64,000 bases of DNA. Source: Nitrospiraceae bacterium (GTDB lineage: Bacteria > Nitrospirota > Nitrospiria > Nitrospirales > Nitrospiraceae). Location: assembly GCA_009692155.1 (NCBI GenBank), contig SHZW01000009.1, forward strand, positions 12,272-76,271, in the 5' to 3' direction. The translations under genes and the position numbers were made by a program. Of the stretch, positions 3,147-55,099 are shown piece after piece. The notes under the pieces were generated by a model, which ran no database searches, was not told the origin of the DNA, and saw only the letters and a program-made list of their open reading frames with translations. Position 1 is the first letter of the stretch; every line of letters begins with the position of its first letter.

Positions 3147-3151
3147 CAGAC

Positions 3152-3179
3152 GTGAGGCGTAAGGCGTGAGGCGTGAGGC
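3152..3179. repeat. four tandem heptamers GTGAGGC / GTAAGGC / GTGAGGC / GTGAGGC (no mirrored arm found)
   Basis: Read directly: cgtgaggcgtaaggcgtgaggcgtgaggcg. It lies between the receptor stop (3146) and the TonB-like gene, and contains that gene's GTG start (3166). Confidence 0.9.
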
Positions 3180-3657
3180 GATCAAAAAGCACGAAGATGG
3201 ATTCCGATGGCGGTTCTCTTCCGGTCTGTCTGCCTGGGCAATCGCGGCAAGTGTGATCCTGATGACTGTTCTTGCGGGACGAGCGGGTGCGGCGGAAGGG
3301 GATCGAGCGACGCACGATTCGGATCATGACGAGGATGTCGTCCTGCTGCCACCCGTCCACGTGCACGGGATTCCACTCAATAAAGACCAGCAACTGGGCC
3401 CGGTGCCGACCTATACGCCGTGGCCGGCCATTCCGCCGGTGCTCGAAGGAAAGGTCATCGATGATTGGATGAAGGCGCGGTTCATGGTGGCCAGGGACGC
3501 GACGATCGACGTGGTCGTGCTGGAGCCGTGCAAATACCGCGAGCTCACCGGCGCCGGCCTGGCCGCGCTGAAGCAATGGAAGTTCGATCCGCAGATGCGC
3601 GGCGAGGAACTGGTCGACGGGGAACTGACGGTGCGCATTCACTTCCGGGCGGAGTAG
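3166..3657 (+). CDS. TonB C-terminal-domain (energy transducer-like) protein
   Basis: 163 aa. The GTG start lies inside a heptamer array. It has one N-terminal TM helix (LSAWAIAASVILMTVLAG), a Pro-rich spacer (PVPTYTPWPAIPPV) and a C-terminal ~80 aa TonB_C-like domain. It is adjacent to the receptor. Confidence 0.65.
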   Translation: MRREAIKKHEDGFRWRFSSGLSAWAIAASVILMTVLAGRAGAAEGDRATHDSDHDEDVVLLPPVHVHGIPLNKDQQLGPVPTYTPWPAIPPVLEGKVIDDWMKARFMVARDATIDVVVLEPCKYRELTGAGLAALKQWKFDPQMRGEELVDGELTVRIHFRAE

Positions 3658-4283: not shown

Positions 4284-5861
4284 TTATCGATTCTGAGGCA
4301 TGATCAGTTCAGGGGAAGCCGCAGATTTGACTGCAGGCGCTGAAGGGATCGAGGTGCGGAGAATGTTGCTGGGGATGATGCCCTGGCCCATCGAATGCTC
4401 ATAGCGAACGGCCGGTGCCGCGGTCTGATATGGAATGCCTAATGTGCGGCGCACGTCAGCCTCGAGCCAGTCGCGAAGGCGGACGAGGTCCTTGGGACTG
4501 AGGAAGTCCGTATATACATAGGAGGTGTACTCGCCAGGGACCCCTTTGTAGTATTCCGCGACTTCCCTGTAATCGACGGCCAGGCTGTGCAGCCGGTCGC
4601 CGGTCTTGGCATAGGTATATGTCCAGACGCCAGGCTTGGTCTCGACCGCCTCGTCGAAATAGGGGGTGCCGGGATAGGTGGTGATGACGGTGGCGTCGAA
4701 GTCCTCCGGGCGAACCTCCAGAAGCCAGTCCCGCGTCGCACGAATGGTCTCTTCCGATTCCCCGGGATGCCCCACAGACATCAGGGCCTTGACCTTCAAA
4801 TCGTGCTTCTTGGCAATCTCCATGCAGCGGGTATTGTCGGCCTGGGCCGCTTTCTTCTGGATGTTGGTCAGAATCCGCTCATGGCCCGACTCAAAGCCGA
4901 CCAGAATCCAGCGGAATCCGGCCCGGCGCATCGCCTCCGCCTGTTCGTCGGTGAAGAGTTCGGCTTTGATGAAGCCGCGCAACCGGAATTCCACTCCGAG
5001 CTTTTTCTGCGTGTCGGCGATCAGGTTCATCAATTCGACGATGCTGGGGCTGACGTTCAGCTCGTCGTCGTACAGCATGAACCCCCTGACGCCGTACGTC
5101 TGATGCAGGTGGACCATTTCCTGCACAATGTTGGCCGATGAGCGCGTCCGCACGCGACGAAGGAACGGGCTCATGCGCCCGCCGCAAAATCCGCAGCCGA
5201 ACGGACAGCCGAGTTGGGCGATCATGGACAGGGCCGGCACGCCGTCAATGTTATAGCGATAGCTGGGCACGTCGAGCAGATGGCGGGCCGGGAAGGGCAG
5301 CGTGTCGAGGACGGCGTTATCCAGGAACAGCGCTGACTTTGGATCGTCGCCGTCGATCAGTTTGGGCGGGTCCTCGCGCAGCGCTTCACGGATCGCAAAT
5401 TCGCCGTCACCCGTGATCAGCACGTCGTACATTTCTTCGAGGTGCCGGAACGCCTCGGTCGCGCGGCCCTTCTTGTTGCGCTTCTGCTCATATTTCACGG
5501 CGGCATGGATCAGGGTGATGTGGGGGCCGCCCAGCATGATTCTGGCTGAGGGGTTGAGCGCGCGGATGACCCGTTGGATTTTTGTCGTCGCCGGCATTTG
5601 CGGCGTCGTCGCCGTGAGCCCGTAGCAGGTCGCCGTGCTGGTTCGGACATAATCCTGAACTACTTCTTCGTAATTGCCGACTCCAGAGAGATCGAGCATT
5701 TCCACGGTGACACCGGCCTGTTCCAGTACGGATGCCACTTTGAGAATGCCCAACGACATGAAGACCCGCTCGTCCAGCAGGAAGATGGAAGGAGGAATGA
5801 TCAGGCAGATCCGGTCGATCATGTTTGCTGAGGCGTCCTGTGCGATCTCGTGTTGGAACAA
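4284..5861 (-). CDS. B12-binding-domain radical SAM protein (class B rSAM)
   Basis: CPFGCGFCGG is the CxxxCxxC radical SAM motif. The N-terminal domain looks cobalamin-binding (ICLIIPPS...LGILKVASVLEQAGV). The true start may be ATG 5822 (MIDRICL). Confidence 0.85.
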   Translation of the reverse strand: MFQHEIAQDASANMIDRICLIIPPSIFLLDERVFMSLGILKVASVLEQAGVTVEMLDLSGVGNYEEVVQDYVRTSTATCYGLTATTPQMPATTKIQRVIRALNPSARIMLGGPHITLIHAAVKYEQKRNKKGRATEAFRHLEEMYDVLITGDGEFAIREALREDPPKLIDGDDPKSALFLDNAVLDTLPFPARHLLDVPSYRYNIDGVPALSMIAQLGCPFGCGFCGGRMSPFLRRVRTRSSANIVQEMVHLHQTYGVRGFMLYDDELNVSPSIVELMNLIADTQKKLGVEFRLRGFIKAELFTDEQAEAMRRAGFRWILVGFESGHERILTNIQKKAAQADNTRCMEIAKKHDLKVKALMSVGHPGESEETIRATRDWLLEVRPEDFDATVITTYPGTPYFDEAVETKPGVWTYTYAKTGDRLHSLAVDYREVAEYYKGVPGEYTSYVYTDFLSPKDLVRLRDWLEADVRRTLGIPYQTAAPAVRYEHSMGQGIIPSNILRTSIPSAPAVKSAASPELIMPQNR

Positions 5862-5887
5862 CTCGTGGCCATCATCATAGAAAAAGT

Positions 5888-6619
5888 CTACGGCTTTTGT
5901 CCAATGATTAGTAAGTTTTTCCCAAGCGGGGCGCCGCAGCGTTGTTCAACAAATTTGGTCGCGGGGACACACCACCGGTCATAGAGTTGTGCGAGCCGCG
6001 CATTGATGGTGCGGGATCGGCCGAGGACGTTGAAGAGGTACCAGAGAAGTATGCCCGCCATGTCCATGTAGATGGCCTTGACCACCTCAAAGCGGTGCGA
6101 CTCGAACAATTGCCGGAGCCGGGGCTTGTCATATCGCCGGACGTGACCGACGGCATGATCCAGCGGGCTGAACAGCCAGGGGAGCGCCGGCACATATACG
6201 ATCAAGGTCCCATGAGGAGCCAGGGACTCGTAGATAGAGTCGAGCAAGCGTCCGTCCTCCTCGATGTGTTCCAGGACGTTCACCAGAATGGTCGTGTCGT
6301 ATTGCTGCGGCGGAGAACGAAACTCGCCCTGAATCGTCTGCAATCGTCCGGCTTGCATGAGCGGGTGGAACTGTTCGTGCAAGAACTCGCCGAGGGCATC
6401 AAACAGTGCGGCGTCCGGCTCGAAAACGTCCAGCGAGGCATCGGGGTGGCGCAGGACATGCTCGCGAGCGATCACGGCTGTAAATGCGCCGAGTCCGCCC
6501 CCGATTTCAGCCAGTTGCGTGCCCAGGAAGGGCCTGAGTTCCTCAAATATCCACGCAGGGTAATTCGTGAGGGATCTGAGAGTCTGCAGTTCGTGCGTGA
6601 GGGGGGATGTGGGAGACAT
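5888..6619 (-). CDS. class I SAM-dependent methyltransferase
   Basis: ORF 5888..6676. SAM motif I is LAEIGGGLGAFT, followed by VLEHIEED. Start ATG 6619 (MSPTSPL) is preferred because the 6676 start overlaps the upstream gene by 37 nt. Confidence 0.75.
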   Translation of the reverse strand: MSPTSPLTHELQTLRSLTNYPAWIFEELRPFLGTQLAEIGGGLGAFTAVIAREHVLRHPDASLDVFEPDAALFDALGEFLHEQFHPLMQAGRLQTIQGEFRSPPQQYDTTILVNVLEHIEEDGRLLDSIYESLAPHGTLIVYVPALPWLFSPLDHAVGHVRRYDKPRLRQLFESHRFEVVKAIYMDMAGILLWYLFNVLGRSRTINARLAQLYDRWCVPATKFVEQRCGAPLGKNLLIIGQKP

Positions 6620-6639
6620 TGGTTTTATGGTGGTGGCGG

Positions 6640-7344
6640 TCAAAGCGGCCGCACACGCCACTTCATGATCGTCCACAGCATGATGACGCCATGCTGCCAG
6701 GTGATTTTCTTCCCTGACTCGTAGGTTCGCGGGGCGTAGTGGATCGGTACTTCCGTCACGCGCGCGCCCTTCCGAAGCAGCTTGCAGATGAGTTCATTGT
6801 CAAACTCGAAGCCCTTGGCGATGACGGGCGTTGAAACGATGACCGACTGGCGAAACGCCTTGTAGCAGCCCTCGTAATCGGTGAAGCGCTGTCCATAGAG
6901 CAGGTTGGTGGCGGTGGTGATGATCTGATTGCCGATATAGTGGAGAAGGTATGGCGAGCGACGCTTCCCAGAAAATTTCAGCTTGTAGAGGATGAACCGT
7001 GAGCCCATGACCGCATCGGCGCGTCCCTCGACGAGTGGCTAGATCACCGCCGCATAGTCGCTGGGATCATATTCCAGGTCGGCGTCCTGGATAAGAATCA
7101 TGTCGCCGGTTGCGGCTTGGAATCCCGTAGTCAGTGCGGAGCCCTTCCCGGAATTCCTCTCGTGTGAGAGATGGCGGATGCCTGTGAGCTGCCGCAAGAC
7201 CTGCCCCGTGCCATCCCTGGATCCATCGTTGACGACGATGATTTCTTTTTCGATCGTTCCCAGGTCCACGGCCTGGACATGCCGGATGAGGTGTTCGATC
7301 GTCGCTTCTTCATTGTACGCAGGGATGACGATGGACAGTTTCAT
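6640..7344 (-). pseudogene. family-2 glycosyltransferase (polyprenyl-phosphate sugar transferase-like) interrupted by an in-frame TAG at 7041-7039
   Basis: ORFs 7039..7344 (MKLSIVIPAYNEE...VVNDGSRDGT...IQDADLEYDPSDYAAVI) and 6640..7008 (MGSRFILY...) are in the same frame. Reading through gives DYAAVI-TAG-PLVEGRADAVMGSRF, which is a continuous GT2 fold sequence. Confidence 0.8.
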
Positions 7345-12127: not shown

Positions 12128-12204
12128 GGGTTGCGGGGTTCGTGGTGCGAGGCGAGATAGCAGCGTGGAACTTTTACCTCGAACCCCGAACCTCGAACCT
12201 CTCG
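12128..12204. repeat. GAGGTTC-heptamer hairpin element (copy 1)
   Basis: Left arm gggttgcggggttcgtggtgcgaggcgag. Right arm cctcgaaccccgaacctcgaacctctcg. The right arm encodes the holB C-terminus. Confidence 0.8.
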
Positions 12205-14767: not shown

Positions 14768-16345
14768 ATGAAACAATCTCTAAATGAAAAAATGAACAAA
14801 TCTCCCCTAGCCGGCCTCGGCGCGGTGGTGATGGCTGCCGGACTCGGCAAGCGGATGAAGTCCAAGCTGGCCAAGGTGCTGCATTCGGTCGCGGGGCGGC
14901 CGATGGTGCTCTATGCCGTGGATCTGGCCCGGCAACTGGCCAGCGAGCATGTCGCGGTGGTGGTGGGCTATCAGGGGAAAGAGGTGCGGACGGCGATCGA
15001 AGCGAGCGGGTCTCACGCCCCGGTGATGGTTGTCGAGCAGACGCAGCAGCTGGGAACCGGCCACGCCGTGCAGCAGGCGCGCGATCTGTTCAAGCGGCTG
15101 GGGAAAACGCTTTCCACCTACCTGATCCTGAACGGCGACACGCCCCTCCTGCAGCCGGCGACGCTCCAGGCTTTGCTGCGGCTCCACCAGGACGAGCAGG
15201 CGGCGGTGACGCTGCTGACGGCGACACCGGACGATCCAACCGGCTATGGCCGCGTGGTGCGCGGCAGGGACGGGCGCGTGCAGAAGATTGTCGAGGATCG
15301 GGATGCGACCGGCGCGGAGAAGCAGATTCATGAAATCAACGTCGGTACCTACGTCACGGACGGCCCGTTTCTCTTCGACGCCCTGGACAAGTTACAGCCC
15401 CGCAATGCGCAGGGAGAATACTACCTGACCGATATCGTCGCGCTGGCCGTGGAGCGGGGCTTGCGCGTATCCGCGCTGGCGGTTCATGAGGCGGCCGAGG
15501 GCATGGGCATCAACACCAGGGAGCAGCTCGCGGCGGCGGAACAGACGATCCGCCGGCGAATCTGCGCGCATTGGATGCAGGAAGGCGTCACGTTACGGAA
15601 TCCTGCGACGACGTCGATTGATGCGGATGTCGCGATCGGTCGGGATACGGTCATTCATCCCGATGTCACGCTCGAGGGCCGGACAATCATCGGGGAGGAT
15701 TGCATCATTCGCTCGCAGACGCGGATCAGCGACAGCACGCTCGGCCACCGGGTGGTCGTGCAGGATCACTGCGTGATCCGGGACTCGCGCCTGGAGGATG
15801 ATGCCGCGGTCGGTCCATTCGCGCATTTGCGTCCGGGCGCGGTGCTGCGCCGCGCGTCGAAGGTCGGCAATTTCGTCGAGATGAAGAAAGCCGAGTTGGG
15901 CGAAGGCTCGAAGGCGAACCATCTGAGCTATCTCGGGGATGCGACAATCGGCAAGGGCGTGAATATCGGCGCCGGCACGATCACATGTAATTACGACGGC
16001 CACAAGAAGCATGAAACGGTGATTGGCGACGATGTGTTTGTGGGGAGTGACACCCAGTTTGTCGCGCCGGTGACGATCGGCAAGGGCGCGGTGATTGCGG
16101 CCGGGGCGACGATCACGGCGGATGTGCCGCCGGACACGCTGGCGATCGCGCGGGCGCCGCAGGTGAACCGGCCCGGCTGGGCCTCGCGCAGGCGCGCATT
16201 GGCCGCCGAAAGCGGCAAGTCCGAGGTTCGAGGTTCGAGGTTAGAGGTGGGGAGCGTGGAGTCCAGAATGAAGCAACCCCGTACCTCGCACCCCGTACCT
16301 CGCACCCCCAAAGGTGTGAAAACTAGGAAGCGGACGAGGGGCTAA
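14768..16345 (+). CDS. glmU: bifunctional UDP-N-acetylglucosamine diphosphorylase / glucosamine-1-phosphate N-acetyltransferase
   Basis: AAGLGKRMKS nucleotidyltransferase motif, and a left-handed beta-helix hexapeptide region (ANHLSYLGDATIGKGVNIGAGTITCNYDG). A ~60 aa basic C-terminal tail is encoded by repeat element 16222..16309. Confidence 0.95.
   Translation: MKQSLNEKMNKSPLAGLGAVVMAAGLGKRMKSKLAKVLHSVAGRPMVLYAVDLARQLASEHVAVVVGYQGKEVRTAIEASGSHAPVMVVEQTQQLGTGHAVQQARDLFKRLGKTLSTYLILNGDTPLLQPATLQALLRLHQDEQAAVTLLTATPDDPTGYGRVVRGRDGRVQKIVEDRDATGAEKQIHEINVGTYVTDGPFLFDALDKLQPRNAQGEYYLTDIVALAVERGLRVSALAVHEAAEGMGINTREQLAAAEQTIRRRICAHWMQEGVTLRNPATTSIDADVAIGRDTVIHPDVTLEGRTIIGEDCIIRSQTRISDSTLGHRVVVQDHCVIRDSRLEDDAAVGPFAHLRPGAVLRRASKVGNFVEMKKAELGEGSKANHLSYLGDATIGKGVNIGAGTITCNYDGHKKHETVIGDDVFVGSDTQFVAPVTIGKGAVIAAGATITADVPPDTLAIARAPQVNRPGWASRRRALAAESGKSEVRGSRLEVGSVESRMKQPRTSHPVPRTPKGVKTRKRTRG
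16222..16309. repeat. GAGGTTC-heptamer hairpin element (copy 2)
   Basis: Left arm cgaggttcgaggttcgaggttagaggtgggg. Right arm ccccgtacctcgcaccccgtacctcgcaccccc. It lies inside the glmU 3' tail. Confidence 0.8.
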
Positions 16346-18185: not shown

Positions 18186-18275
18186 GTCCGAAAGTCATAA
18201 AGTCGTCAAGTCATCAAGTCTCGGACTTGATGATCTTTGGACATTACGACTTTTAGACTTTACGACTTGAAAGAC
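18186..18275. repeat. AAGTC-octamer hairpin element (copy 1)
   Basis: gtccgaaagtcataaagtcgtcaagtcatcaagtc-tcg-gacttgatgatctttggacattacgacttttagactttacgacttgaaagac. It fills the glmS-gatC spacer. Confidence 0.9.
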
Positions 18276-18973: not shown

Positions 18974-20439
18974 CGGGGATTCACCAACTCACCCTCGCAG
19001 ACCTCCAGAAGAAATTCACCGCCGGTGAGGTGACCGCGCGCGATATCGTGCAGGCCTACACCCTCCGTATTAATCAGGTCGAGCCGAAGGTCAAAGCCTA
19101 CATCACGCAGACCAAGGATGCGGCGATGGCGCAGGCCGATGCGCTGGACGAGAAGCTCAAGGGCTGGCGCCGCACCATGCCGCTCACGGGCATGCCGGTC
19201 GCCATCAAGGACAATATCTGCACGGAGCACGTTCCGACGACCTGTGCTTCGCGCATCCTCGGCAACTTCGTCCCGCCCTACGATGCGACCGTGATCGCGC
19301 GACTGCGCGGCCAGGATTATCTCCTGCTCGGCAAGACGAACCTGGATGAGTTTGCAATGGGCTCCTCGACGGAGAACTCCGCTTTCGGGCCGAGCCGGAA
19401 TCCCTGGAACATCAGCCATGTGCCGGGAGGGTCGAGCGGCGGCTCCGCGGCAGCGGTGGCGGCGGACGAATGCGTGGCGGCCCTGGGCTCGGATACCGGA
19501 GGGTCCATCCGGCAGCCGGCTGCGCTCTGCGGCGTGGTGGGATTAAAGCCGACCTATGGGCGTGTCTCGCGATTCGGCCTCATCTCATTCGCGTCGTCGC
19601 TCGATCAGATCGGTCCGATCACCAAAGACGTGACCGATGCCGCGATTATGCTGAACGTGATCGCCGCTCACGACCCGCTCGATTCCACGTCCGCAAACCT
19701 GCCGGTGTCGGACTATACGAAGGCGCTCAAAAAAAAGGACCTGAAAAAACTAAAAATAGGCGTGCCGGAGGAATTTTTTGCGGCCGGGATTGATCCGGAA
19801 GTCGAACAGGCTGTGCGGGCGGCGATCGGCGAACTCAAAAATTTGGGCGGGGAGATCAAGGAAGTCAGTCTGCCCACGACGGACTATGCGGTCGCCATCT
19901 ACTATCTGGTTGCCACGGCCGAGGCCAGTTCGAATCTCGCGCGCTATGACGGCGTCAAATACGGCCTGCGCACGAAGCAGACGAAAGACCTGCTGGACAT
20001 GTATGTGAAGACCCGGCAGGAGGGGTTCGGGCCGGAGGTGAAGCGGCGGATCATGCTCGGTACCTACGCGCTGAGCGCCGGCTACTACGATGCGTATTAC
20101 GGCAAGGCCCAGGCGGCGCGTACGATGACGAAAAATGATTTTGACGAGGCGTTTAAAGAGGTGGACCTGATCGTCACGCCGGTGACGCCCACGCCGGCGT
20201 TCAAGCTCGGCGAGAAGAGCGAAGATCCGTTGCAGATGTATTTGTCGGATATTTTCACGATTTCCGTAAACCTGGCCGGTTTGCCGGCGATTTCGATTCC
20301 CTGCGGGTTCAGCAAGGCGGGGCTGCCGATCGGATTGCAGATCATTGGGCGGCCGTTTGAAGAAGAAACGATTCTCCGGGCTGCGCACGCGTACGAGCAG
20401 GCAACGGATTGGCGCGCGAAGAAGCCGAATCTACGGTGA
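18970..20439 (+). CDS. gatA: Asp/Glu-tRNA amidotransferase subunit A
   Basis: Amidase signature [29 protein letters not shown] overlap with panD. Confidence 0.95.
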
Positions 20440-20514
20440 AAGGTGAAAAGTAAAAAGTGAAAGGTTGCGGAGTGGAATTCGGCTGTCTGAACCTTTTACC
20501 TCTCACTTTTCACG
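20436..20514. repeat. GTGAAAG-heptamer hairpin element
   Basis: Left arm ggtgaaaggtgaaaagtaaaaagtgaaaggtt. Right arm gaaccttttacctctcacttttcacg. It starts at the gatA stop codon. Confidence 0.85.
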
Positions 20515-25726: not shown

Positions 25727-25807
25727 AGTCGAAAGTCATAAAGTCTAAAAGTCATCAAGTCAGAAGAAAAGACTTTACGACTTTAAGACGTTCAGACTTG
25801 AAAGACT
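25727..25807. repeat. AAGTC-octamer hairpin element (copy 2)
   Basis: agtcgaaagtcataaagtctaaaagtcatcaagtc ... gactttacgactttaagacgttcagacttgaaagact. It lies in the era-mgtE spacer. Confidence 0.9.
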
Positions 25808-32514: not shown

Positions 32515-32616
32515 CACAAGTCTATCAAGTCGAAAAGTCTCTCAAGTCATAAAGTCGCCGGAAGCTCGCCTCTTTGATTTGAGACTTTACGACTTTCGAC
32601 TTTATGACTTTCGGAC
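32515..32616. repeat. AAGTC-octamer hairpin element (copy 3)
   Basis: cacaagtctatcaagtcgaaaagtctctcaagtcataaagtc ... gagactttacgactttcgactttatgactttcggac. It fills the spacer between the two helicase halves. Confidence 0.9.
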
Positions 32617-49867: not shown

Positions 49868-50350
49868 TCAGGTCGGCTGGAACTCGGCTCGAGCAACCTG
49901 ACGATCCTTGATCCAATAGGCCCGCAGGTCCGGTGTCGTCTTATGTTCCAGGGAAATGATGAGATAGGCCGCGTCTGGATAGTAGGCGAGCCCCACGTCT
50001 GTGGTGGAGGGATAGGCGGGCGAATGGGTGTGGGAATGGTAGATCACGGCTAACTCAAGATTCCGCTGGCGCATGTCCTTGAAGGCCGCCAGCATCTCTT
50101 TGGGGTCCATGAAGTAGGCGACTTCGGCCCTGGTGGAATCCGGCAGGTGTCCGAGCTGCTTGACGTCGGCGCCGTCGAAGACCTCCATAGCCCTGGCGTC
50201 TTTTGCCACGGTGTTCGTGATCCGGTAATGGCGCGAGACTGCGCCGTTCGTGCCGGCCAGCAACCCGCAGCATTCGAACGGGTCCAGTTCACGCGCGTGA
50301 GCGATCATGTCGTCCAGAATCTGCCGGGGGATTTTGAGAGAAGGCGTCAT
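49868..50350 (-). CDS. JAMM/MPN+ metallopeptidase (Mec+/HcyD-like sulfur-carrier C-terminal peptidase)
   Basis: The ECCG element and HSHTHSPAYPSTTD give the JAMM motif E...HxHx7Sx2D. Confidence 0.85.
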   Translation of the reverse strand: MTPSLKIPRQILDDMIAHARELDPFECCGLLAGTNGAVSRHYRITNTVAKDARAMEVFDGADVKQLGHLPDSTRAEVAYFMDPKEMLAAFKDMRQRNLELAVIYHSHTHSPAYPSTTDVGLAYYPDAAYLIISLEHKTTPDLRAYWIKDRQVARAEFQPT

Positions 50351-50353
50351 TTT

Positions 50354-50521
50354 GTCCGAAAGTCGTCAAGTCTGAAAGTCATAAAGTCTTGGCTTAGTCA
50401 TCAAGTTCTAAGGTCGTAAAGTCTTCAGGTCGACTTGACGTTATGACTTTACAGACTTTCTGACTTGATAGACATGCCTTCTCGGTAGACTTTACGACTT
50501 GATGACTTTGGACTTTCAGAC
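50354..50521. repeat. AAGTC-octamer hairpin element (copy 4, longest)
   Basis: gtccgaaagtcgtcaagtctgaaagtcataaagtc...gtaaagtcttcaggtc | gacttgacgttatgactttacagactttctgacttgat...gactttacgacttgatgactttggactttcagac. The centre is at gtcgac (about 50430). Confidence 0.9.
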
Positions 50522-51334: not shown

Positions 51335-51350
51335 GGCTTCGCTCAGATTA

Positions 51351-51421
51351 GAGGTTATAGGCTATGGGTAATGGGCGAAGAAAGCACCTATAGCCCATCA
51401 CCTCGCGCCTATTGCCTATTC
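51351..51421. repeat. ATAGGCT/ATGGG-heptamer hairpin element (copy 2)
   Basis: Left arm gaggttataggctatgggtaatgggcg. Right arm cacctatagcccatcacctcgcgcctattgcctattc. It lies between the NIL gene stop and the ThiF copy 1 start. Confidence 0.8.
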
Positions 51422-51655
51422 AATAACGTTTAGCTCGATGGGGTCGACCGTGACCCCTTTCTTCTTCATGCCTTCGATGGCCCGCTCGATTTCGGCCGTC
51501 TCGCCGCTCAGTTCCAGATCTATCCAGCCGGTGGTTTCCCGTACATCGGCCCGGCGGATGTTGGTCACCACCTTATATTCATGGCCGATCTGGTACACGA
51601 TCGGCTCCTTGATTTTCTGTTCAGGGAATCGGATATGGAAACGCATATTCGGCAT
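51416..51655 (-). CDS. stand-alone NIL-domain protein
   Basis: 79 aa from ATG 51655: [62 protein letters not shown] resembles the NIL (MetN C-terminal) domain. Its ATG overlaps the stop of the carrier gene (ATGA). Confidence 0.65.
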   Translation of the reverse strand: MPNMRFHIRFPEQKIKEPIVYQIGHEYKVVTNIRRADVRETTGWIDLELSGETAEIERAIEGMKKKGVTVDPIELNVIE

Positions 51656-51930
51656 CAGTTGCCCCCTGCAATGGCCGGTACGATTGAAACTTCGTCGCCA
51701 TCCTTGAGCGACGTGTCCTTGCCGTTCAAAAACCGGATGTCTTCCTCGTTGACGTAGATATTCACGAAGCGGCGCAACTCGCCCTTGTCGTCGCACAGCC
51801 GGTCTTTCAGGCCGGGATGGGCGGAGTTCAGGGTCTCGATCATCTCGGAGATGTTTGCCGCCGTGGCTTCCACTTCGCCCTGGCCTTTGGTCAGGGGCCG
51901 CAGGGGAGTGGGAATTCGAACCTTAATCAC
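51655..51930 (-). CDS. CysO/MoaD-family sulfur-carrier protein ending ...AIAGGN
   Basis: 91 aa. IPTPLRPLT...[14 protein letters not shown]...[14 protein letters not shown] closely parallels M. tuberculosis CysO. One extra residue (N) follows Gly-Gly; I verified the codons ggc ggg aac tga on the minus strand. The GTG start overlaps the thrC stop. Confidence 0.85.
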
Positions 51931-53186
51931 GCGTTGCCTCCACCGTTCTTGCCGATCTTGAAGGTTCTCTCGAAATTGACCAGGCTCGGTTGAATGCGGA
52001 ACGGCCGGCCGACCGCGTCAATCACCGCTTCCTGCGTTTTGAGCCCGTTGCCGGTGATGTAGGCCACCGTGACGTCGCTTTTCTTGATGACGCCCTGCTT
52101 GACCAGCTTCTGGAGCACGCCGATCGTCACGCCGCCGGCGGTTTCGGCGAAGATGCCTTCCGTCTGAGCCAGCAGCTTGATGCCGTCCACCACTTCCTCG
52201 TCGGACACCATGTCCATCGCACCCTTGCTTTCGCCGGTGGCTTTCAGCGCGTAGTAGCCGTCTGCCGGATTGCCGATGGCCAGCGACTTCGCGATGGTCT
52301 TGGGCTTGACCGGCTTGAAGAAGTCGCGGCCTTCTTTATAGGCGGTCGCGATTGGCGAGCAGCCATCTGCCTGTGCACCGTTAATTTTCGTCTGGACCTT
52401 GTCGATCAGGCCCAGCGCTTTCATTTCGTTCAAGCCTTTCCAGATTTTTGTCAGCAGCGAGCCCGAGGCCATCGGAATCACCGCCTGATCCGGTGCGCGC
52501 CAGCCGAGTTGCTCGACAGTTTCGAAGGCCAGGGTCTTGGAGCCTTCGGCGTAGTAGGGCCGGATGTTGATGTTGACGAACGCCCAGCCGTGTTCGCCGG
52601 CGATCTCGCTGCACAGGCGATTCACGTCGTCATAATTGCCTTCCACCTCGATGACGTTCGGCTTGTAAATCAGGTTGCCCAGGACTTTCGCCGCTTCCAG
52701 ATCGGCCGGGATGAACACGTAGCACTTCATGCCGGCCGCGGCCGCGTGAGCCGCCACGGAGTTGGCCAGATTGCCGGTCGAGGCGCAGGCGACGGTTTCG
52801 AATCCCAGCTCGCGCGCGCGGGTCAGCGCCACCGAGACGACCCGGTCCTTGAATGAGAGCGTCGGGTGGTTGACCGTATCGTTCTTGATGTACAGCTCGT
52901 CGAGGCCCAGGTAGGCGCCGAGATTCTTGGTTCGCACCATCGGCGTGAGGCCGGCATGCGGCCCGATCACGGAATCGATCGACGCGGTTTCGACGGGCAG
53001 CAGATCCATGTACCGCCACATGCTCCGCGGGCCATCCTCGATTTTCTTGCGCGAGAGGTTCTTCTTGATTTCGTCATAGTTGTACTTGACCTCCAGCGGG
53101 CCGAAGCACAGTTCGCAGACGTGGATCGCCTTGGTCGGGTATTCCTTCCCGCATTCCCGACAGACCAGCGATTTCATCTTGGTCAT
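51927..53186 (-). CDS. thrC: threonine-synthase-family PLP enzyme with N-terminal zinc ribbon
   Basis: CRECGKEY...CELC ribbon, PLP lysine motif TLSFKDR and a fold-type II body. The thrC symbol denotes the family; its role here may differ (see findings). Confidence 0.85.
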
Positions 53187-53201
53187 GACGTCACCACTCC
53201 A

Positions 53202-53263
53202 GAAGGTTGAGGTTAAGGCTTAGGTTAAGTTTCCTTCTCAGCCTAAGCCTCAACCTTAACCTG
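53202..53263. repeat. AGGTTG/AGGCTT-hexamer hairpin element (copy 2)
   Basis: Core stem AGGTTAAGGCTTAGG (53210-53224) pairs with CCTAAGCCTCAACCT (53242-53256), giving 14/15 Watson-Crick pairs on the plus strand. It lies between the thrC start and the ThiF copy 2 stop. Confidence 0.9.
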
Positions 53264-54064
53264 CTTCAGCTCGCAGGCTTCCTGCTCGTAATCGATCAGC
53301 TTCGTGATGGTCGGGTGTTCGCCGCACAGGGGGCAGTGCGGATTGCGCTTCGTTTTGATTTCACGGAACGACGCTTTCTTGGCGTCGTAGTCCAGCAGCC
53401 GGTCGGTCAGCAGCCGGCCGATGCCGAGCACGATCTTCAGCGCTTCGGTCGCTTGCAGGGTTCCGATGACGCCGGCCAGCGCGCCGATCACGCCGGCTTC
53501 CTGACAGCTCGCGACCAGCCCGGCCGGCGGCGGCTGTTTGAACACGCACCGGTAGCAGGCTGATTTCTTCGGAAGGATCGTGGTCACCCGGCCGTCAAAA
53601 CGGAGGATGCCGCCGTGCACCAGCGGCTTGTCGGCAAAGACGCAGGCGTCGTTGATCAGGAACTTGGTGGGAAAATTGTCCACACCGTCGATCACAACGT
53701 CGTAGCCGGAGACGAGCTTCAAGGCATTGCCGGCCACAAAGCGCTCTTCGTGCAGCACGACCTGAACATCCGGATTGAGCGCCTGAATTTTTTCCTTGGC
53801 CGACAGAACCTTGGACCGGCCCACGTCCGGGGTGTAGTGGATGATTTGCCGCTGCAGATTGGACAGGTCCACCGCATCGCTGTCGATCAAACCGATCGTG
53901 CCGACGCCCGCCGCGGCCAGATAGAATGCAGCGGGGGAGCCGAGACCGCCGGCGCCGACGATGAGGATCTTCGCCCTGGCGATTTTCTTCTGTCCCTTGC
54001 CGCCCACCTCCGGCAATAGAATGTGACGGCTGTAGCGGGTAACCTGTTCGTCTGTGAATTCCAT
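53243..54064 (-). CDS. ThiF/MoeB-family E1-like adenylyltransferase, copy 2 (no rhodanese domain)
   Basis: RYSRHILL, GAGGLGSPAAFYLAAAGVG and CYRC...CPLC. It is a paralogue of copy 1. Start ATG 54064 (MEFTDEQ). The last residues KQVKVEA are encoded by a repeat. Confidence 0.9.
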   Translation of the reverse strand: MEFTDEQVTRYSRHILLPEVGGKGQKKIARAKILIVGAGGLGSPAAFYLAAAGVGTIGLIDSDAVDLSNLQRQIIHYTPDVGRSKVLSAKEKIQALNPDVQVVLHEERFVAGNALKLVSGYDVVIDGVDNFPTKFLINDACVFADKPLVHGGILRFDGRVTTILPKKSACYRCVFKQPPPAGLVASCQEAGVIGALAGVIGTLQATEALKIVLGIGRLLTDRLLDYDAKKASFREIKTKRNPHCPLCGEHPTITKLIDYEQEACELKQVKVEA

Positions 54065-54069
54065 GTCAG

Positions 54070-54161
54070 CAAGTCCGAAAGTCGTCAAGTCCGAAAGTCG
54101 TCAAGTCCGAAAGTCTTGAGATGAACGACTTGAAGACTTTACGACTTTTTGACTTTTGGAC
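54070..54161. repeat. AAGTC-octamer hairpin element (copy 5)
   Basis: Left arm holds three consecutive copies of the 16-mer caagtccgaaagtcgt (the third incomplete: caagtccgaaagtc). Right arm is gacttgaagactttacgactttttgacttttggac. It lies between the cysK stop and the ThiF copy 2 start. Confidence 0.9.
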
Positions 54162-54169
54162 CATTGGTT

Positions 54170-55099
54170 TCAGATATTGAAATATTTCTCGATGCTGATA
54201 TAGCGCTCGCCTGTGTCGCAGAGAATCGTCACGATGTTCTTGCCTGGGCCGAGTTCCTTCGCCACCTTCTGAGAGGCAAACACGTTGGCGCCGGCGGAGA
54301 TGCCCACCAGGAGCCCTTCCTTCTTGGCCAGCAGCTTGGCCGTCTGATACGCCTCGTCGTCCGTCACGGTGATCACACCGTCCAGAATCGTCCGGTTCAA
54401 TACTTTTGGCACGAACCCCGCGCCGATGCCCTGAATCTTGTGCGGGCCCGGGTCTCCGCCGGACAGAACCGGCGAGCCGGCCGGCTCCACGGCAATCACC
54501 CTGATTTTAGGGTTGCGCTCTTTAAACACTTCGCCGCAGCCGGTGATCGTGCCGCCGGTGCCGACGGCCGCCACGAACGCATCAATCTTGCCGTCCATTG
54601 CTTCCCAAATCTCCAGCGCCGTAGTTTTCTTGTGCATCGCGGGGTTGGCCGGATTGGAAAACTGGTCCGGCATGAAATACGACGGATTCTGCGCCACGAT
54701 GCTCTCCGCTTCCTTGATCGAGCCCTTCATGCCTTCCCATGCCGGCGTCAGCACAAGCTGCGCGCCGTAGGAGGACAGCAGACTGGCCCGCTCCATGCTC
54801 ATGCTCTCCGGCATGACGAGGATCAATTTATAGCCGCGTACGGCTGAGACCAATGCCAGGCCGATGCCGGTGTTGCCGCTGGTCGGTTCAACGATCGTCC
54901 CGCCCGGCTTCAGCTTGCCCTGCCGCTCCGCCTCGTTGATCATGCTGAGGCAGATCCGGTCCTTGACGCTCCCGCCAGGATTGAAAAACTCGACCTTCCC
55001 GTAGATGGTACCCGCGCCCTCAGGGGAGAGCCGGTTCAGGCGAACCAGCGGGGTCCGGCCGATCAGTTCCGTGATGTCCTTATGCGCTGAAACCGTCAC
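54170..55099 (-). CDS. cysK: cysteine synthase (CysK-type O-acetylserine sulfhydrylase family)
   Basis: PLVRLNRL, PLP lysine GGSVKDR, TSGNTG and GPHKIQGIGAGFVP. The GTG start overlaps the stop of the ThiS-like gene (GTGA). Confidence 0.92.
   Translation of the reverse strand: MTVSAHKDITELIGRTPLVRLNRLSPEGAGTIYGKVEFFNPGGSVKDRICLSMINEAERQGKLKPGGTIVEPTSGNTGIGLALVSAVRGYKLILVMPESMSMERASLLSSYGAQLVLTPAWEGMKGSIKEAESIVAQNPSYFMPDQFSNPANPAMHKKTTALEIWEAMDGKIDAFVAAVGTGGTITGCGEVFKERNPKIRVIAVEPAGSPVLSGGDPGPHKIQGIGAGFVPKVLNRTILDGVITVTDDEAYQTAKLLAKKEGLLVGISAGANVFASQKVAKELGPGKNIVTILCDTGERYISIEKYFNI

Follow-up and report, generated by a model that had tools for sequence, protein, structure and literature searches.

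A candidate MetM/MetO-type homocysteine synthesis module with a translationally coupled NIL-domain protein in a Nitrospiraceae bacterium

We analysed a window of 64,000 nucleotides from a Nitrospiraceae bacterium (GenBank assembly GCA_009692155.1, contig SHZW01000009.1, positions 12,272 to 76,271 of the forward strand; coordinates below are those of the window). On the basis of open reading frame (ORF) calls and family profiles, the window contains eight consecutive minus-strand genes in the order ThiS–CysK–ThiF–[ThrC-like–carrier–NIL]–ThiF–JAMM (Table 1). The three bracketed genes encode a pyridoxal phosphate (PLP) enzyme homologous to threonine synthase (ThrC), a small ThiS/MoaD-type sulfur carrier, and a stand-alone NIL-domain protein. 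The enzyme and the carrier very likely represent MetM and MetO of the O-phosphohomoserine thiocarboxylate pathway, by analogy with the characterised system of Streptomyces albulus. For the whole, the best explanation, to which we assign a probability of about 0.6, is that MetM, MetO and the NIL protein form one module of a thiocarboxylate operon for sulfur amino acids, with NIL in the role of a methionine sensor.

The assignment of the ThrC-like enzyme was based in large part on the neighbourhoods of its homologs. With one genome taken per species, a MetM-anchored scan gave 80 loci, which belong to Nitrospirota, Aquificota, Cyanobacteria, Chloroflexota, Actinomycetota, Verrucomicrobiota, Nitrospinota, Methylomirabilota and other phyla, and the homologs in these genomes were 56-80% identical to the window enzyme. 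In about 71 of the 80 loci a ThiS/MetO-type gene was located directly 3' of the MetM homolog. All nine Actinomycetota loci had an S-adenosylmethionine (SAM) riboswitch (RF00162, 55-68 bits) immediately 5' of the MetM homolog, which ties the clade to methionine and not to threonine. A canonical short ThrC (357-375 amino acids, aa) was co-encoded in four loci and was only 33-38% identical to MetM, the same level as the 33% identity reported for Bacillus subtilis ThrC and MetM. In a Thermodesulfovibrio metagenome-assembled genome (MAG; L053, 148-3101) the canonical ThrC (375 aa, 37-38% identical to MetM) directly follows MetM-MetO-NIL, and therefore both O-phosphohomoserine-consuming enzymes are encoded in one operon.

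The comparison of sequences revealed 29 clade-invariant positions that separate MetM from the co-resident canonical ThrC. With ThrC numbering checked against the Thermus thermophilus 1uim sequence, the replacements from ThrC to the window enzyme were T88 to L140, S155 to N207, R160 to Y212 and N188 to S241, and the GNAGN loop of ThrC (PLP-phosphate loop) was changed to ASGSL. The substituted residues were invariant in 81 MetM-clade sequences, while the four co-resident ThrCs kept the ThrC residues. The PLP lysine was retained, with K61 of T. thermophilus ThrC corresponding to K113 within the SFKDR motif. We take T88, S155, R160 and N188 to be residues that hold the phosphate in ThrC and aid water addition, roles for which a literature search gave no confirmation. 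Under this assumption, the remodelled phosphate site would fit a switch from beta-hydration to gamma-replacement with loss of water addition.

MetM also carries an N-terminal four-Cys zinc ribbon of about 55 aa, in which C9, C12, C24 and C27 are invariant; solved ThrCs are without it, and their alignments to MetM begin at about residue 55. A Pfam match named 'NinF' on MetM residues 9-32 corresponds to this ribbon. The window enzyme passed the general thrC model TIGR00260 (287.4 bits vs a cut-off of 167.1) and did not pass NF006050, a model of zinc-ribbon 'threonine synthase' (287.2 bits vs a cut-off of 303). The former model is unable to separate MetM from ThrC. The MetM homologs were named 'threonine synthase' in all source annotations, and MetM is described as 'often misannotated' in this way in the GapMind 2026 preprint. 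Fusions occur among more distant ThrC/MetM-like homologs with 34-39% identity (P0320, P0336, P0376, P0380 and P0384, of 611-620 aa; P0342 and P0372; P0386): the partner is a LeuA_dimer allosteric domain, a PadR helix-turn-helix or a ThiF E1, the last placed N-terminal to PALP. Regulatory or carrier-activating modules have been gained repeatedly in this family.

Gene context, the SAM-riboswitch linkage in relatives and the active-site signature together placed the window enzyme in the MetM clade. The first-pass annotation of this DNA had proposed that the ThrC paralogue combines carrier thiocarboxylate with O-phosphohomoserine to form homocysteine, and the same three lines of evidence lend support to this proposal, by analogy with the characterised pathway. 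Its tentative mention of ThrC-like enzymes making homocysteine in actinomycetes could be traced to MetM/MetO of S. albulus, so the doubt about novelty that it had expressed was justified.

The window MetO ends in ...VPAIAGGN, that is, with one extra residue (Asn) beyond Gly-Gly, and in addition to the ThiS family it matched MoaD_arch (52.9 bits) and SAMP1 (58.7 bits). The ending ...PA[IV]AGG is conserved in its orthologs, of which 53 out of 70 stop exactly at GG and the rest continue with 1-7 unconserved residues or with a whole NIL domain. The residue after Gly-Gly is N in the window and R (GGR) in another Nitrospirota MAG (L001), and there is none in Nitrospira japonica. Such short and unconserved tails suggest that MetO may be trimmed on a small scale, in a manner similar to the cleavage of a fusion.

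Fusions of this kind were indeed found. MetO and NIL are encoded in one ORF, as ...IIPAIAGG-linker-NIL, in L003 (Syntrophaceae) and L069, and a metagenome scan seeded with these two fusion sequences returned 80 loci. Single-ORF fusions made up 18 of these, all with Gly-Gly at the junction; their linkers, 3-13 residues long, fall into at least five unrelated types. In 50 loci MetO and NIL were separate, mostly 3-130 nt apart. MetM was located upstream in 37 of the 40 metagenome loci that had enough sequence. Among the metagenomic fusion loci with a length of 6 kb or more, 7 of 8 contained a JAMM gene, in comparison to 6 of 23 separate-gene loci (Fisher p=0.004); this enrichment fits the fact that an internal Gly-Gly blocks adenylation until it is cut. 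The window JAMM has an intact catalytic motif (...ECCG...HSHTHSPAYPSTTD, HxH...S..D) and is presumed, by analogy, to trim carrier C-termini and/or to hydrolyse carrier-amino-acid adducts. In the window itself NIL is read in the -1 frame relative to MetO, and this frame contains no stop over 47 upstream codons (ORF 51416-51796). If the ribosome slipped by -1 at the GGGGG that follows Gly-Gly (51655-51670), the product would read ...AGG-QL-MPNM..., like the natural fusions; this is speculative, and the arrangement was not conserved in N. japonica and had no canonical slippery site. At L001 (9230-9745) only an in-frame stop divides MetO from NIL.

The linkage of NIL to MetM and MetO extends well beyond Nitrospirota. 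An ORF of about 80 aa encoding NIL adjoined MetM/MetO in about 20 of the 80 MetM-anchored loci, from at least five phyla, with a re-search by profile hidden Markov model included. The order MetM-MetO-NIL was seen in Nitrospirota (L001, L053), Verrucomicrobiota (L043, L045, L049), Methylomirabilota (L078) and L041, and the order MetM-NIL-MetO in eleven Chloroflexota loci. No adjacent NIL was found in about 40 cyanobacterial loci or in the Nitrospinota of this set. The NIL family is large (7993 clusters among 8000 scored). In look-ups anchored on NIL on long contigs, a MetM-clade PALP enzyme was encoded next door in 6/6 cases, and in 5/6 the genes formed either a tight PALP-NIL-ThiS triad or the Nitrospira cluster, in genomic settings that were otherwise unrelated; the sixth was L085, which has no ThiS gene beside NIL. 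A SAM riboswitch preceded 5 of the 20 NIL-containing loci, indicating that in these operons NIL is co-regulated as a methionine gene. Taken together, it is highly probable that NIL is a functional partner of the MetM/MetO system.

We also considered that NIL might replace the SAM riboswitch, and rejected this as a rule, given that both co-occur in 5/20 NIL loci. The riboswitch frequency did differ between the Actinomycetota loci without adjacent NIL (9/9) and the NIL loci (p=0.0002), a difference that is confounded by phylogeny. Two other settings of NIL were noticed. At L085 (4907-10050; also L086) a MetM-clade enzyme, 346 aa as called and without the zinc ribbon, is encoded with NIL, an Aminotran_5 cysteine desulfurase (IscS), NifU_N, an AIRS-family protein and MnmA; the upstream genes encode ThiF, a CysK-like protein, a hexapeptide transferase and a Cys_Met_Meta_PP enzyme, and no ThiS adjoins NIL. 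In two Acidimicrobiia-type loci (L048, 15428-16488; L063, 12007-13235) a NIL of the same subfamily lies 3-7 kb downstream of metM-metO, where the genes directly before it encode a PP-loop (NAD_synthase-like) ATPase and a member of the chlorite-dismutase family. These loci may represent a further setting in which NIL serves sulfur transfer.

To describe the NIL protein we used a model from AlphaFold2 (pLDDT 91.3), which has a beta-alpha-beta-beta-alpha-beta fold. The top 11 PDB matches of this model were all MetN C-terminal domains, with TM scores of 0.79-0.84 to C2 of Escherichia coli MetN, and ACT domains ranked next. The invariant block T31-N32-x-R34-R35-A36-x-V38 (the TNIRRA strand) forms strand beta2, and N32 was invariant in 58 NIL family members. 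In the profile alignment to MetN, N32 corresponded to N295, A36 to A299 and V38 to M301. L-Met in MetN is bound across the C2 dimer with a hydrogen bond to N295, binding is lost on N295A substitution, and the register of the dimer sheet is determined by A299 and M301 (PMC6233128). The NIL domain of the methanogen L-aspartate semialdehyde sulfurtransferase (L-ASST) has likewise been treated as a methionine-binding regulator (PMC12068725). The first-pass annotation had regarded NIL as a methionine- or sulfur-related accessory or sensor, and this fits the linkage, the fusions and the modelled MetN C2 fold. That NIL responds to methionine specifically is a more tentative proposal, which the modelled ligand strand suggests and to which we would give slightly less than even odds.

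The window NIL contains zero cysteines and no ferredoxin domain, and an Fe-S or persulfide function was ruled out by this absence of cysteine. The public names of NIL homologs include 'FeS-binding protein', 'ABC-type methionine transport system ATPase subunit' and 'L-aspartate semialdehyde sulfurtransferase ferredoxin'; such names, like those of the MetM homologs, appear to be annotation-transfer errors.

From these observations and from the families involved, the following course of events can be proposed. JAMM would remove the extra Asn of MetO, after which the second E1 (ThiF2) would adenylate the C-terminal Gly-Gly, and a sulfur donor would turn the adenylated carrier into MetO-COSH. MetM, if it acts like its S. 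albulus ortholog, would eliminate phosphate from O-phosphohomoserine on PLP, and MetO-COSH would attack C-gamma. Homocysteine could then be formed directly or through a MetO-homocysteine adduct hydrolysed by JAMM, the latter step being borrowed by analogy from the CysO/CysM and HcyS/MetY systems. NIL, made in step with MetO, would be the third component, a small dimeric subunit sensing methionine or a close relative, with the ligand held by a beta-strand and an Asn equivalent to the L-Met site of MetN C2. NIL would throttle or dock the MetO/MetM step, which would amount to post-translational feedback on homocysteine synthesis. In the fused lineages JAMM would have to cut NIL off before carrier activation, and this maturation might be a point of control. 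For cysteine, the equivalent job would fall to the upstream ThiS-CysK-ThiF1 genes. A bolder version, which we regard as improbable, is that the MetNI importer, L-ASST and MetM/MetO each recruited NIL independently as a portable methionine sensor, and that binding of the end product gates JAMM cleavage or E1 activation. If true, such gating would be metabolite-controlled processing of a ubiquitin-like precursor in bacteria.

Several points weigh against the explanation that we favour. The orthology of the window enzyme to S. albulus MetM is shown through intermediates, namely the Actinomycetota loci with riboswitch and MetO and the homolog of Microcystis; ten 50%-cluster representatives were all named just 'threonine synthase', the best of them coming from Micromonosporaceae, and S. 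albulus MetM was not identified among them. According to PMC12172450, identity to the S. albulus proteins is 51.6% for the Microcystis 'ThrC' (compared with MetM) and 47% for its neighbour (compared with MetO). This Microcystis homolog, which is included in our homolog set as L050, is reported there to have acted in vitro as a threonine synthase and as a threonine deaminase, and MetM activity was not clearly seen when sulfide was supplied. As for NIL, its absence from the Streptomyces-type and cyanobacterial operons means that it is not essential for the chemistry, and its co-occurrence with riboswitches means that it is not simply a substitute for riboswitch control. No MetM residue co-varied with NIL presence (threshold >=80% vs <=15%). 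The invariant R34-R35 has no counterpart in MetN, and thus the ligand need not be methionine. A C-terminal fusion to the carrier would be equally expected of a docking partner, as in MoaD-MoaE fusions, and the fusion evidence cannot tell a NIL sensor from a docking adaptor. Finally, both E1s are without the MoeZ rhodanese domain, so the cluster itself does not reveal the sulfur donor.

The docking role is the main rival for NIL and deserves to be weighed as an explanation of its own, in which NIL would be a structural adaptor or chaperone that binds the MetO tail or the MetO-MetM complex and aids sulfur transfer, as MoaE does with MoaD. The recurrent MetO-GG-NIL fusions and the 1:1 translational coupling are what such a role would leave behind; the position of NIL between MetM and MetO in Chloroflexota and its persistence beside a MetM-clade enzyme where MetO is not adjacent (L085) would agree with it as well, and the Arg-Arg pair could grip a carboxylate or thiocarboxylate tail. 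However, the systems of cyanobacteria and actinobacteria, among them the characterised one, function with no NIL gene beside them, MetM does not co-vary with NIL, and the best-conserved NIL strand is exactly the ligand and dimer strand of MetN C2. We consider the adaptor role possible but unlikely.

The rivals that concern the enzyme itself seem to us much less probable. The first-pass annotation had held that the 419-aa protein could equally be an ordinary threonine synthase that merely shares an operon with sulfur-carrier genes. In favour of this are its TIGR00260 score, its public name, some threonine synthase activity of the cyanobacterial homolog in vitro (PMC12172450) and the lack of a second thrC in the 64-kb window. 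The clade signature, the carrier linkage and the riboswitches speak against it: identity to the canonical ThrCs that four MetM loci also contain is low, the four phosphate-site positions and the GNAGN loop are all replaced, the carrier gene is tightly linked across phyla, the riboswitches are of the SAM and not of a threonine-related type, and, according to the GapMind 2026 preprint, misannotation of MetM as ThrC is common. We regard this explanation as very improbable, and the same holds for a module whose product is another sulfur compound, such as a thio-amino acid or a cofactor precursor, bound by NIL. The ThrC family has diverged (e.g., to cysteate synthase, with a TIGR03844 match at 69 bits), its distant homologs carry varied regulatory fusions (LeuA_dimer, PadR), and NIL also occurs near IscS/NifU/MnmA (L085) and a PP-loop ATPase (L048/L063). 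The SAM riboswitches before close homologs nevertheless point to methionine, the identity to the clade that holds the characterised system is high, and in both its fold and its key Asn NIL matches a domain that binds methionine.

Table 1. Genes and other features of the sulfur cluster in the window.
Feature	Coordinates	Strand	Support
Promoter-like site TTGACA-18-TATCGT with TG, 5' of the first cluster gene	55343..55372	-	Consensus match only
ThiS-type sulfur carrier, 66 aa from ATG, ends ...YMGGGR	55096..55296	-	thiS TIGR01683, 54.6 bits
CysK-type O-acetylserine sulfhydrylase-like PLP enzyme, 309 aa	54170..55099	-	cysK TIGR01139, 460 bits
Palindromic array of 8-nt-period AAGTCNNN repeats, CysK/ThiF1 spacer	54063..54155	.	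Second copy at 50354-50509, ThiF2/JAMM spacer
ThiF/MoeB-type E1 no. 1 (ThiF1), 281 aa from TTG	53243..54088	-	ThiF, 280.8 bits
MetM-type homocysteine synthase (predicted), 419 aa	51927..53186	-	PALP, 223 bits; TIGR00260 thrC, 287.4 bits
MetO-type carrier (ThiS/MoaD beta-grasp), 91 aa, GTG start	51655..51930	-	ThiS family, 66.5 bits
Stand-alone NIL-domain protein, 79 aa	51416..51655	-	NIL PF09383, 51.5 bits (cut-off 24)
ThiF/MoeB-type E1 adenylyltransferase no. 2 (ThiF2), 267 aa	50531..51334	-	ThiF, 275.5 bits
JAMM/Mec-type metallopeptidase, 160 aa, last gene of the cluster	49868..50350	-	Prok-JAB, 79.8 bits

The three central ORFs lie on the minus strand where the first-pass annotation had placed them, and the four-nucleotide overlap that it described between the MetM stop and the MetO GTG (GTGA, 51930-51927) was confirmed. 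Its second overlap, between the MetO stop and the NIL ATG, is also located at 51655, but the motif is not ATGA: the sequence reads TGATG, with TGA at 51657-51655, ATG at 51655-51653 and a single shared base. The nearby JAMM peptidase that it had invoked is real, as are two ThiF-family E1 genes. Shine-Dalgarno-like purine runs (GGAGG and AGGGGG) were found 7-8 nt 5' of the MetO and NIL starts. Stop/start overlaps are common in operons and are weak evidence alone; the conservation of the trio exceeds chance. All eight genes are present in N. japonica (L084) in identical order and with matching flanks, and the MetM-MetO-NIL order recurs in L001.

An Rfam search of the window cluster gave no riboswitch or other element, its sole match being a chance snoRNA, and no other threonine, methionine or sulfur-assimilation genes, a second thrC included, were found within the window. 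Elsewhere it contains only housekeeping genes (MetRS, GlmU/GlmS, GatA/B, enolase, Era and MgtE), together with glycogen synthase, an efflux pump, deformylase and an ABC exporter; the flanks are unrelated to the cluster. An AmmeMemoRadiSam-system radical SAM enzyme (60829-61956; TIGR04337, 263 bits), 5 kb beyond the cluster, and a B12-binding radical SAM gene with a methyltransferase (4284-6676) are unrelated to it as well.

Both E1s matched only the adenylation half of the MoeZ model NF005902 (positions 14-273 of 392), and no rhodanese domain was found in the profile search of the cluster proteins. The two are paralogues with 72-73% nucleotide identity over stretches of 229 and 130 nt. For ThiF1, an ATG located 8 codons inside the TTG-called ORF may be the true start. 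The position of ThiF2 after NIL is retained in L001, L084, L103 and L153; by analogy, ThiF2 is presumed to activate MetO, and ThiF1 the upstream ThiS-type carrier. The CysK GTG start overlaps the stop of this ThiS-type gene by 4 nt, and the ThiS-CysK adjacency recurs in L001, L084, L103, L115, L120 and L152. The N. japonica ThiS orthologue ends in GGGC and that of the window in GGGR, so the last residue is not conserved. The closest structures to the window CysK were CysK/OASS-A (2egu and 2q3b, ~366-394 bits) and not Mycobacterium tuberculosis CysM, and among curated models cysK TIGR01139 (460 bits) scored above cysM TIGR01138 (298) and NF008735 (296). This suggests that the ThiS-CysK pair may be a thiocarboxylate-dependent cysteine synthase of a lineage other than CysM.

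The 8-nt-period AAGTCNNN elements occupy five intergenic sites in the window (18192-18268, 25733-25799, 32518-32613, 50354-50509 and 54063-54155), and 18 matches to the pattern were counted vs 0 expected. Each site consists of a forward array followed by a reverse array, i.e., a long imperfect palindrome, and two of the copies divide the sulfur cluster into ThiS-CysK, ThiF1...ThiF2 and JAMM. Arrays with a 7-nt period are present in other spacers, e.g., at 3151-3180, 12176-12201, 16222-16248 and 20435-20465. The intergenic arrays could be REP-like hairpins, terminators or protein-binding sites. In addition, an inverted repeat with 29-nt arms (83% complementary) and a 7-nt loop fills the ThiF1-MetM spacer just 5' of MetM (53201-53265), and an AT-rich palindromic segment of similar kind occurs between NIL and ThiF2 (51335-51415); neither had an Rfam match. 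The ThiF1-MetM spacer of N. japonica is only 27 nt, and hence the inverted-repeat element is not conserved.

The pathway itself is already known (2024), and the Nitrospira operon is a new member of it. For the 'threonine synthases' that Nitrospira, Chloroflexota, Verrucomicrobiota, cyanobacteria and others encode in this clade, the most likely function is homocysteine synthesis, and a corrected annotation alters metabolic reconstructions and auxotrophy predictions for key nitrifiers. No literature was found that links NIL to MetM, MetO or ThiS, though Hasebe et al. 2024 itself may mention NIL; judged by the searchable literature, the NIL third component and the MetO-NIL fusions look like a previously undescribed variant. 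This would extend the 2024 pathway by a third, widely conserved component and would be a second, independent attachment of NIL to homocysteine synthesis, which may help to settle the role of NIL in the methanogen L-ASST. The carrier-NIL fusions would be a bacterial analogue of ubiquitin-precursor processing and offer a testable handle on the regulation or assembly of the protein-thiocarboxylate pathway.

Among known systems, MetM/MetO of S. albulus is compared first. As summarised in the GapMind 2026 preprint, that pathway (Hasebe et al. 2024) uses MetO as carrier, Mec as hydrolase, MoeZ as ligase and MetM as MetO-thiocarboxylate-dependent homocysteine synthase, and the route is now included in GapMind; an upstream SAM riboswitch of S. 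albulus metM is mentioned in PMC12172450. The window shares with this system a ThrC-homologous PLP enzyme encoded directly 5' of a Gly-Gly ThiS/MoaD carrier, the need for an E1-type activator and a JAMM (Mec) peptidase, the SAM riboswitch on close homologs and the misannotation as threonine synthase. It differs in having a stand-alone NIL translationally coupled to the carrier, dedicated E1 and JAMM genes in the same cluster, E1s without the MoeZ rhodanese domain, a carrier with one residue past Gly-Gly, no riboswitch, and a junction with a ThiS-CysK-ThiF cysteine-type module. The logic and the helper enzymes also resemble CysO/CysM/Mec/MoeZ of M. tuberculosis, to which ThiS-CysK-ThiF1 with the shared JAMM would be the cysteine counterpart. 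The window CysK is, however, nearest to CysK1/OASS-A structures and not to CysM, and the analogy of ThiS-CysK to CysO/CysM is a possible, working one.

Wolinella succinogenes reportedly makes methionine through a protein-thiocarboxylate pathway of HcyS, HcyF, HcyD and MetY, said to have been described by Krishnamoorthy and Begley in 2011. The logic would be the same as in the window, with a carrier extension cut by JAMM, E1 activation, and thiocarboxylate attack on PLP-bound activated homoserine to give homocysteine. In contrast, its PLP enzyme is MetY (fold type I, with O-acetylhomoserine), and that of the window is ThrC-type (fold type II, with presumed O-phosphohomoserine); the HcyS system is not known to have a NIL component. 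For this HcyS/MetY-type route the term 'protein thiocarboxylate pathway' is used in PMC5764234.

The window NIL resembles the MetN C2 domain in its fold and in the conserved Asn on the dimer-interface strand, which serves L-Met binding and trans-inhibition in MetN. Unlike MetN C2, it is free-standing and does not form the end of an ABC ATPase, it carries a Gly-Trp and an invariant Arg-Arg that are both absent from MetN, and its partner is a biosynthetic enzyme/carrier pair and not a transporter. L-ASST of methanogens and Desulfovibrio (COG1900/DUF39 plus NIL-ferredoxin) is likewise a homocysteine-forming system with a recruited NIL, but it uses aspartate semialdehyde and not a homoserine ester, and the window cluster has neither a COG1900 protein nor a ferredoxin domain, with a NIL free of cysteines. 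Precursors that are cleaved after Gly-Gly include carrier-partner proteins such as mycobacterial MoaX (MoaD-MoaE) and the ubiquitin-ribosomal protein fusions. As in these, the MetO-NIL fusions join a beta-grasp carrier and a second domain in one polypeptide with Gly-Gly at the junction, implying proteolytic release. Unlike these, MetO is fused to a NIL/ACT-like small-molecule-binding fold and a JAMM gene co-occurs, whereas in the window the carrier and NIL are encoded by separate genes.

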